From: a virus
Lineage: Duplodnaviria; Heunggongvirae; Uroviricota; Caudoviricetes
Virus record (IMG/VR): IMGVR_UViG_2563366961_000005
DNA: 4,795 nucleotides
Strand: one strand, 5' to 3'
The translations under genes were made by a program, and so were the position numbers. Below are positions 2,331-2,413 of this stretch, one piece after another. The notes beneath the pieces are model-generated. The model was not told where the DNA came from and searched no databases. It saw only the letters and a program-made list of their open reading frames with translations. The first letter of the stretch is position 1. Every line of letters begins with the position of its first letter.

Positions 2331-2341
2331 GCCAGAGAGGG

Positions 2342-2402
2342 GTTAGCGACAGGTTAGCGGCCCCTTAGCGAACATCAAACAGCATTCAGAGACATGTTAG
2401 CG
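2342..2402. promoter_or_regulatory. Phased array of four (G/C)TTAGCG motifs; candidate terminase small subunit binding site (cosB/pac-like) or operator
   Basis: GTTAGCG at 2342-2348, 2353-2359 and 2396-2402, CTTAGCG at 2364-2370. Spacings of 11, 11 and 32 bp place all four on roughly one face of the helix. The array ends 11 nt before the terS-like start. Confidence 0.5.
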
Positions 2403-2413
2403 AGGGGGGAAAC

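Follow-up and report, generated by a model that had tools for sequence, protein, structure and literature searches.

The DNA analysed here, 4,795 nucleotides of the IMG/VR record IMGVR_UViG_2563366961_000005 (assigned to the Caudoviricetes; hereafter “the window”, i.e., this whole stretch at its full length), carries an array of short direct repeats immediately in front of a gene for a protein resembling phage small terminases (hereafter terS-like; Table 1). It is a fragment of an Escherichia coli chromosomal island of the type of the K-12 cryptic prophage CPZ-55, bracketed by two inverted copies of the IS1 end (1–91 and 4701–4795). An initial annotation of the same DNA had pointed out four copies of (G/C)TTAGCG upstream of the terS-like gene, had likened them to the R sites bound by gpNu1 in lambda cosB, and had offered two roles for them, a packaging recognition site or an autoregulatory operator.

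Table 1. Features of the window discussed in the text.
Feature	Position	Strand	Description
HNH endonuclease gene	160–555	+	PF13392 (HNH_3), E = 1.3e-8
ORF91 (open reading frame)	2055–2330	+	homologue of K-12 yffM; predicted three-helix bundle; stop codon 2328–2330
Tandem array	2331–2406	+	seven direct units, 11-bp period; from the ORF91 stop to the terS-like ribosome-binding site
Unit 1	2331–2341	+	GCCAGAGAGGG; CAGAGA-type core
Unit 2	2342–2352	+	GTTAGCGACAG
Unit 3	2353–2363	+	GTTAGCGGCCC
Unit 4	2364–2374	+	CTTAGCGAACA
Unit 5	2375–2384	+	TCAAACAGCA; degenerate, 10 nt; preserves the register between units 4 and 6
Unit 6	2385–2395	+	TTCAGAGACAT; CAGAGA-type core
Unit 7	2396–2406	+	GTTAGCGAGGG; the Shine-Dalgarno run begins in its 3' half
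terS-like gene	2414–2830	+	138 aa; PF20901 (Sf6_terminase), E = 8.6e-8; phrog_1482, terminase small subunit

A phased array in front of a terS-like gene

The four copies reported initially lie exactly where they had been placed, on the + strand at 2342, 2353, 2364 and 2396 (the hexamer TTAGCG itself at 2343, 2354, 2365 and 2397; spacings 11, 11 and 32), and their description as a helically phased array that is not due to chance is confirmed. In a look-elsewhere test over all hexamers, four same-strand copies within 61 nt arose in 6/1500 Markov simulations, while the base identity at lag 11 in 2331–2413 is 0.49 (~0.25 at other lags), a value reached at any lag from 3 to 30 by 43/20000 shuffles. 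Over the whole window, TTAGCG occurs nine times for 2.5 expected, and 0/200 shuffles reach nine. A fifth copy, at 2058, corresponds to the start of ORF91 (ATG-TTA-GCG), is not kept in relatives and is regarded as coincidental. The extent of the array had been understated, since it comprises seven units rather than four, six of them with recognisable cores (spacings 11, 11, 11, 21 and 11). All are direct repeats and none contains a GATC site; Tandem Repeats Finder (TRF) misses the array because its units are too degenerate. Between the end of the array and the ATG of the terS-like gene there are 7 nt, and the last unit runs into the Shine-Dalgarno run AGGGGGG (2403–2409, 4 nt before the ATG), as it does in all array-bearing relatives. 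No match to the consensus of the integration host factor (IHF; WATCAANNNNTTR, at most one mismatch) was found in 2331–2413, the only perfect matches in the window being located in the two IS1 ends, each of which has one (TATCAATAAGTTG). There is a single array per island; a search for a second one elsewhere in the islands (the analogue of a pacR or cosQ) returned only scattered single TTAGCG, CAGAGA and AATTCG hexamers. A G-quadruplex reading was rejected, as it fits the arrays of two relatives (L009 and L005) by eye but not that of the window.

The small-terminase-like gene that had been announced directly downstream is indeed there. A profile built from five members of the family matches the chains of Shigella phage Sf6 gp1 (3HEF) over residues 20–121 (E = 2e-12). 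In the AlphaFold model (monomer; predicted local distance difference test, pLDDT: 82.9), a disordered N-terminus (1–23) is followed by a basic arm with a GRP motif, a helix-turn-helix (HTH) at 32–69 (helices 32–43, 48–53 and 60–69) and two long helices (71–97 and 106–131), so that both the N-terminal HTH and the helical oligomerisation core expected of a ring-type small terminase are present in the model. Foldseek ranks 3HEF, 4DZP and 4DZJ on top (probability 1.00, 113 columns, 26–27% identity), and no PDB entry other than those of Sf6 gp1 gives a significant fold match. By profile and by predicted fold, the terS-like protein is thus a true homologue of Sf6 gp1, over the HTH as well as the oligomerisation helices; it shares with Sf6 gp1 (PDB 3HEF, 4DYC) the GRP arm, the HTH and the two long helices, but Sf6 gp1 comes from a complete headful phage, where it is encoded beside terL, and the Sf6 pac is not known to be a repeat array.

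The family amounts to ~94 clusters, essentially all from E. coli, and profile scans of IMG/VR and of the GTDB species representatives yielded nothing beyond this species. According to identity with the window protein, it falls into lineages at 86–96%, 67–74%, ~50% and 30–40%, plus a fifth represented by K-12 YffO, for which the homology with Sf6 gp1, the AT-hook-like GRP arm and the HTH were noted earlier, the upstream DNA not being considered (PMC10380284). Downstream of the array, the terS-like gene and ORF134 overlap by ATGA (2827–2833), stop and start sharing a base, and ORF134 in turn overlaps a gp10-like gene by 29 nt (3206–3234); these overlaps indicate that the module is translationally coupled.

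The array in related islands

The DNA 5' of the terS-like start was read in ~40 loci taken from complete genomes, draft assemblies and metagenomes. The window-type allele is identical in 9 independent sequences (allele set: the window, six complete genomes H57–H62, of which L002 was read, L070, L073 and L074), and four further loci (L001, L003, L004 and L076) keep the same architecture, including the degenerate unit 5 (TTAAACAGCA), with single-unit changes or one extra GTCAGAGAGGG. The first unit is identical in L001, L003–L006, L012 and L038. Mixes of TTAGCG and CAGAGA units are found in L001–L006, L011, L012, L070–L074 and L076, while in the 67–74% lineage TCAGAGA, TTAGCG and CAGCG units are mixed, or else the array is pure GTCAGAGAGGG. 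Pure GTCAGAGAGGG arrays were read in L013–L016 and L038. In the ~50% lineage, a first sublineage shows CCTTAGCGACC or CCTTAGCAACG (CCTTAGCGACC in L017–L020 and L035–L037) and a second one GGTAATTCGGG (L009, L010, L033 and L034). Units are spaced by 11, now and then by 10 or 12, and the decay of a unit leaves a multiple of the spacing; of the 25 relatives' loci tested, 22 have their highest autocorrelation at lag 11 or 22. Copy number ranges from 3 to 10 overall, and arrays of 6, 7 and 8 units occur within the TAATTCG and TTAGCG-C2 lineages.

In the 30–40% lineage and in front of K-12 yffO, exact repeats are lacking and phased A/T tracts stand in their place. There, the weak/strong base (W/S) composition oscillates with a period of 10.5–10.75 (p ~0.001 in L007, L008 and L028), and the 117 bp before yffO in K-12 MG1655 (L067 4995–5111) contain ~10 phased A/T tracts with a period of 10.75, a signal reached by 0/10000 shuffles. 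This is the strongest W/S signal at 10–11.5 bp in the whole 10.5-kb locus, and the region preceding the terS-like gene likewise gives the strongest such signal in L009, L021 and L028. The K-12 protein YffM is the homologue of ORF91. The TTAGCG motif, to which the initial annotation had drawn attention, is not itself the conserved feature: units are replaced wholesale by TCAGAGA, TAATTCG or A/T tracts, and what is conserved is the place of the element and its helical period. A W/S (nucleosome-like) periodicity does not qualify as a universal feature either: the TAATTCG, A/T-tract and C2 types show it strongly, but in the array of the window it falls short of significance. Inside the phased A/T region of the 30–40% lineage, we also observed a G/C hairpin (GGGGGTTTTCGCCCCC or GGGGCCAAAACGGCCC; L008/L021 ~2430–2460, L007 7775–7800).

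Such turnover raises the question of whether the array is just a slippage-prone minisatellite (variable number of tandem repeats, VNTR) lodged in a tolerant spacer, devoid of function, whose 11-bp period would be inherited and kept by slippage instead of selection. Copy-number polymorphism between otherwise identical alleles, which is what defines a VNTR, does occur here (3–10 copies with identical flanks), units are homogenised within loci in a manner that indicates concerted evolution, the TTAGCG, CAGAGA and CAGCG units are only a few mutations apart, and unrelated viral contigs often contain tandem arrays with an 11-bp period. We nonetheless hold this explanation to be improbable: the element keeps its position even between terS-like lineages sharing only 30–50% identity; the heterogeneous window-type arrays, which should not slip easily, retain their individual units across independent genomes and metagenomes; the repeat-less lineages are still phased by A/T tracts, with a period (10.5–10.75) that is not arbitrary; and the array is lost in the sole lineage with a dead terS-like gene. 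The related idea of a contingency locus was rejected, as the array is preceded by a stop codon and followed by a Shine-Dalgarno sequence, and no promoter-like hexamers were found, so that a change in length would shift neither a frame nor a promoter spacer.

Because the region is transcribed with the operon, the repeats might alternatively act in the intercistronic leader of the RNA, be it as a repeat bound by a protein, as a standby site for ribosomes or through a structure controlling terS-like translation. To this we give hardly any credence. An 11-nt period is the helical repeat of DNA and has no meaning for RNA, and, although purine-rich, Shine-Dalgarno-like GAGAGGGG units exist in some lineages, such runs are absent from TTAGCG-type units. 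The window's RNA does fold slightly better than shuffles (z = -2.1), but the weak GGGG:CCCC fold is not conserved in relatives, and the Rfam covariance models found no match in the whole window at E <= 1.

The array appears to travel with the terS-like gene rather than with what precedes it. In many relatives, homology with the window ends at the ORF91 stop codon, and in L076 a gene for a cyclophilin-type peptidyl-prolyl isomerase (PF00160, 921–1418) takes the place of ORF91, whereas the seven-unit array and the terS-like gene are kept (the isomerase, found in this one sublineage, is an unusual cargo for such an island). Conversely, L069, L072 and L075 have an array reduced to one unit, a terS-like gene cut after ~20 codons, and neither ORF134 nor the gp10-like gene, so that the tape-measure-like gene follows directly (L072 6360–6770); as this is one lineage, the joint collapse is anecdotal. 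To judge from these comparisons, the array and the terS-like gene form one module. Recombination has also occurred within the module. L009 and L017 are 96–100% identical in DNA from about codon 30 of the terS-like gene onward and differ only upstream of it, in the array and at residues 2–5, 10, 19, 22, 26, 27 and 29, which places a sharp mosaic junction at ~codon 30 (L009 7000–8000 vs. L017 2000–3010), the DNA upstream of it, array included, being unrelated. The protein P0019 of L038 is a second natural chimera, with a lineage-B N-terminus on a lineage-A body.

A candidate packaging site and its alternatives

The non-random array is retained with the terS-like gene in every lineage, kept when ORF91 is swapped and collapsed when the terS-like gene is deleted, and therefore a packaging site and/or an operator, as initially proposed, remains the best reading. 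Of the traits of pac and cosB sites, the array has both the position beside a terS gene and the helically phased repeats. In our estimation, there is an even chance that it is the cis-acting, pac/cosB-type packaging recognition pad of the island's terS-like protein.

The genetic context lends itself to this reading. Domain searches (Pfam/PHROG) found no terL, portal, capsid or replication gene in the island, and the lack of the first three makes it look like a phage satellite that would have to borrow the packaging motor and capsids of a helper. Of the traits of phage-inducible chromosomal islands (PICIs) and Staphylococcus aureus pathogenicity islands (SaPIs), it possesses an integrase, an AlpA-like HTH_17 protein and the terS-like protein; terL, portal, capsid and a replication module are absent. 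As with the small terminases of satellites (SaPI TerS, PICI Rpp, and GpsA/B of the PICI-like elements, PLEs), a small-terminase-type factor is thus encoded by an integrase-bearing island without terL or capsid, and by analogy this factor presumably directs a helper motor to island DNA (for background on satellite-encoded small terminases and the redirection of packaging, see 10.1101/2024.04.22.590561). Unlike SaPIs, PICIs and PLEs, the island family has no replication genes, carries tape-measure-like and gp10-like genes, which are unusual for a PICI/SaPI satellite, and has no known helper, induction or transfer. Among the satellite pac and cos sites described so far, we know of none that is a phased tandem array.

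Among known recognition sites, the array functionally most resembles the pacL wrap-around model of the Bacillus phages SPP1 and SF6, to which lambda cosB and P1 pac are looser analogues. In the SPP1/SF6 pac region, direct repeats span the promoters and the start of the terS gene, and the single DNA-binding domains of the small terminase bind weakly and nearly without sequence preference; its rings have a circumference of ~300 Å, with adjacent HTHs about one turn of B-DNA apart, and bendable DNA of ~100 bp is thought to wrap around them by “conformational selection” (PMC4737164). A circumference of ~300 Å equals ~88 bp, i.e., 8 x 11 bp, and 7–8 units of 11 bp make 77–88 bp, or ~260–300 Å. This agreement with the published ring is the reason for taking the array as a candidate loading pad of a terS-like ring. 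As in the SPP1/SF6 pac (pacL/pacR, G1P), short direct repeats lie at and upstream of the terS start and overlap expression signals. However, the array is one uninterrupted head-to-tail run of 3–10 units at 11 bp where SPP1/SF6 have a few dispersed boxes; the island protein is related to Shigella Sf6 gp1 and not to G1P; and the element sits in a chromosomal island without terL and with no known cleavage site (pacC).

The comparison with lambda cosB and gpNu1 stands only in so far as several small-subunit sites (R3, R2 and R1 in lambda, besides the IHF site I1) lie immediately upstream of the small-subunit gene. For the rest, it is loose. gpNu1 is a winged-HTH dimer of another family, while the terS-like protein matches PF20901/Sf6 gp1 only; the lambda R sites are 16 bp long, of mixed orientation and spread over ~120 bp with an IHF bend, while the array has no IHF consensus and its units are all direct, 11 bp apart, and do not track the HTH. 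In lambda, cosB specificity pairs with the cognate protein (lambda vs. phage 21). The array does not belong to the lambda cosB type. The suggested tie with cos cleavage by an HNH endonuclease needs correction as well: such a gene does occur in the region, but it is optional in the island family and absent from L004, L006 and L009, which still have an array, so that the array is not tied to an island-encoded HNH cos cleavage. P1 pac, a ~160-bp site, consists of TGATCA/G hexamers bound by PacA, of which multiple same-orientation copies must be occupied, with one cluster on either side of the cut site and control by Dam methylation. The array resembles it in its short hexamer core and in having several copies in the same orientation, but it forms a single cluster with a strict 11-bp period and no GATC.

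Direct repeats at helical spacing and in variable number are also typical of the iterons of plasmid, phage and satellite origins, including those of SaPIs, P4 and similar satellites, so that the array could be conceived as the initiator-bound iterons of an island replication origin. This is very unlikely: the ORFs of the window and those of the complete island L001 yielded no Rep, primase or helicase domain, hence no initiator gene is apparent; no A/T-rich unwinding region is adjacent, the array being squeezed between two coding regions; and its linkage is to the terS-like gene, not to a candidate initiator.

Under the packaging reading, the terS-like protein would assemble into a ring similar to that of Sf6 gp1, exposing one HTH and one basic arm per subunit at intervals of about one DNA turn. 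The 11-bp repeats would then place an equivalent bendable contact (a T-N-A or TYAGMG core beside a G/C-rich half) on the same helical face at each turn, so that ~75–90 bp could wrap around the ring, and the wrapped complex would nucleate the recruitment of the helper's large terminase to island DNA. Recognition would operate mainly through period and shape, with a loose sequence preference, and units would therefore be replaceable and copy number free to drift. As the last unit overlaps the Shine-Dalgarno sequence, occupancy of the array would probably also throttle terS-like translation.

A pure operator, without any role in packaging, would be coated by the terS-like protein or by another regulator of the island, block the ribosome-binding site or act as a transcriptional roadblock, and so set the dose of the terS-like protein and of the downstream genes. 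We deem it unlikely, in spite of the Shine-Dalgarno overlap in every array-bearing locus, of the location of the array inside a transcription unit and not ahead of a promoter (a search of 1850–2500 gave no sigma-70-like site), of the several HTH proteins encoded by the island, and of a variable copy number that could tune expression. Indeed, one or two sites are normally enough for an operator, not 7–10 phased ones; helical phasing is also kept in the A/T-tract lineages, over ~115 bp; the adjacent protein is a homologue of ring-type terminases and not a classical repressor; and control of expression is compatible with packaging in any case, given that the SPP1 pac overlaps the terS expression signals (PMC4737164).

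Several observations weigh against the packaging reading. The HTH is identical in L009 and L017, though their units differ (TAATTCG and TTAGCG, respectively), and L038 combines a window-type HTH and the lineage-B N-terminus with a three-unit array of CAGAGA only. Four loci with the same terS-like protein (P0028) have 3, 5, 9 and 10 units, which implies that there is no fixed match to an 8-mer. The window's own array lacks a significant W/S periodicity, which is therefore not claimed for it. Beside their terS homologues, relatives have phased DNA at that position in all lineages, but the motif varies; moreover, no comparable array lies upstream of terS in the distantly related coliphage mEp021, of the nearest coliphage group of TerS homologues. 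Arrays of TTAGCG at 11 bp also exist in unrelated viral contigs without a nearby terS-like gene: a search for three consecutive TTAGCG-N5 returned 24 such contigs, all with unrelated 11-bp tandem repeats and with no terS-like ORF in the vicinity (hidden Markov model search), hence the repeat type alone is not diagnostic. Furthermore, the CPZ-55-type island may be a defective remnant, and that of the window is cut by IS1 at both ends.

The uncoupling of unit and HTH deserves attention. Candidate correlates of the unit (the HTH, the type of ORF91, the C-terminus of the upstream ORF) were tried, and none of these co-variations holds; in further loci, KSAKYGVAI is paired with TAATTCG and KRAKYT(I/V)AL with TTAGC, a pattern that is indistinguishable from physical linkage. 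As the unit does not co-vary with the HTH, a simple sequence-specific reading of the R-site type is doubtful, even if the broader proposal of a packaging site or operator stands. Two readings of this uncoupling remain, either a loose recognition (TYAGMG or T-N-A core) led by period and shape, in which the basic arm perhaps sits in the minor groove, or another reader altogether.

Such a reader could be the small terminase or some other factor of a helper (pac mimicry), a host nucleoid protein, or a different protein of the island. A unit sequence uncoupled from the terS-like HTH is what one would expect if the reader were encoded elsewhere, different units could match different helpers, and mimicry of a helper pac is known in satellites (10.1101/2024.04.22.590561). 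That said, no phage in INPHARED or IMG/VR has these arrays beside a related terS, G/C-rich units without IHF consensus are poor targets for proteins of the H-NS/IHF type, and the array is strictly linked to the terS-like gene and collapses with it, all of which makes this explanation quite unlikely. Mimicry of a helper by the same arrays in phages was discarded as a candidate, since only unrelated contigs without a terS-like ORF matched. ORF91 is probably not the DNA-binding reader either: its structure model is a confident but plain three-helix bundle without any informative PDB fold match, and the gene is dispensable for array retention.

The array bears on the unsettled issue of how small terminases select viral DNA, in which ring-forming TerS proteins bind weakly and nearly independently of sequence, yet packaging starts at defined pac sites. 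The island family offers a natural series of sites, with a constant repeat per turn before terS but a varying unit sequence and number, and hence material to separate the recognition of shape and period from that of sequence. The result also provides a first functional handle on K-12 CPZ-55 (yffO and its upstream region) and suggests that elements of the CPZ-55 type are phage satellites, whether degraded or active, and not what is left of a full phage. A bolder version, according to which these islands are an undescribed E. coli satellite family whose packaging signal is set by geometry rather than sequence, strikes us as possible, albeit doubtful. Were it true, any 11-bp unit repeated ~3–10 times before the terS-like gene would be a pad wrapping a TerS ring, each subunit taking one unit; the turnover of units and the drift in their number would serve as a fast-evolving barcode or rheostat of packaging specificity and efficiency; and the family would be the clearest natural case of “conformational selection/wrap-around” pac recognition, as well as a system tunable in unit number, sequence and spacing for studying how small terminases find viral DNA. 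Should the array be only an operator or a minisatellite, its interest would be local. Neither these arrays nor a mobile role of CPZ-55-type islands turned up as described in the searchable literature, which is incomplete.

The island and its other features

The 4.6 kb between the IS1 ends are matched in 60/5,426 complete E. coli genomes (best match: 97%), where the island measures ~11–12 kb and is usually inserted between eutB and eutA, i.e., at the site of CPZ-55 in K-12. In megablast searches, thousands of plasmids in PLSDB match the window through the IS1 ends only, and none of the 50,697 phage records of INPHARED matches it. From left to right, the island consists of intZ, a variable part (often with a YafO-type toxin), an AlpA-like HTH_17 gene, the HNH gene (not in every member), three to five small unknown ORFs, ORF91, the terS-like gene, a 130-aa ORF, an HK97-gp10-like gene (likewise not in every member), a 730-aa tape-measure-like gene, small ORFs and an XRE-type HTH gene. 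The left IS1 of the window cuts the island shortly before the HNH gene, while the right one truncates the tape-measure-like ORF at residue 347 and provides its stop codon; the piece could be mobile as an IS1 composite element. In many islands (left parts of L001–L010), the interval from int to the AlpA-like gene holds a YafO-family toxin gene with a small upstream ORF on the opposite strand. ORF91 has no Pfam or PHROG match, and its homologues are confined to E. coli.

Upstream of ORF91, a hairpin (GCCCGG-loop-CCGGGC, 1941–1961) directly follows ORF55; its stem is kept in every relative, with a different loop each time, and its T-run exists on the minus strand only. Between this hairpin and ORF91 lies a conserved block (..ATTAAGCAATG..TTTAGCAATGTTTAAATC..CATTATACA.., at 1962–2054). 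Judging from these sequences, 1941–2054 probably comprises an internal terminator or attenuator and a non-canonical promoter from which the ORF91/terS-like transcription unit would start. Further upstream, ORF148 (953–1399) contains a 36-bp coding tandem repeat (1214–1302, TRF score 129), in which the peptide TRQYF(E/D)GELDDF occurs ~2.5 times before more YFDG motifs, and the next ORF (1404–1742) ends in ..NTYF..NSYFY. Neither has a Pfam or PHROG match, and a role in scaffolding or size determination is a guess.

Outside of the islands, head-to-tail 11-bp repeats containing TTAGCG are frequent in unrelated IMG/VR contigs (L042, L045, L049, L052–L058, L060 and L062), the end of L058 consisting of GACAGATTAGC repeated at least 10 times. 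A search for CAGAGAGGGG arrays returned one unrelated contig and a 108-kb viral contig whose ORFs look eukaryotic-virus-like rather than phage-like. Arrays with a period of 11 are possibly more general in viral DNA.

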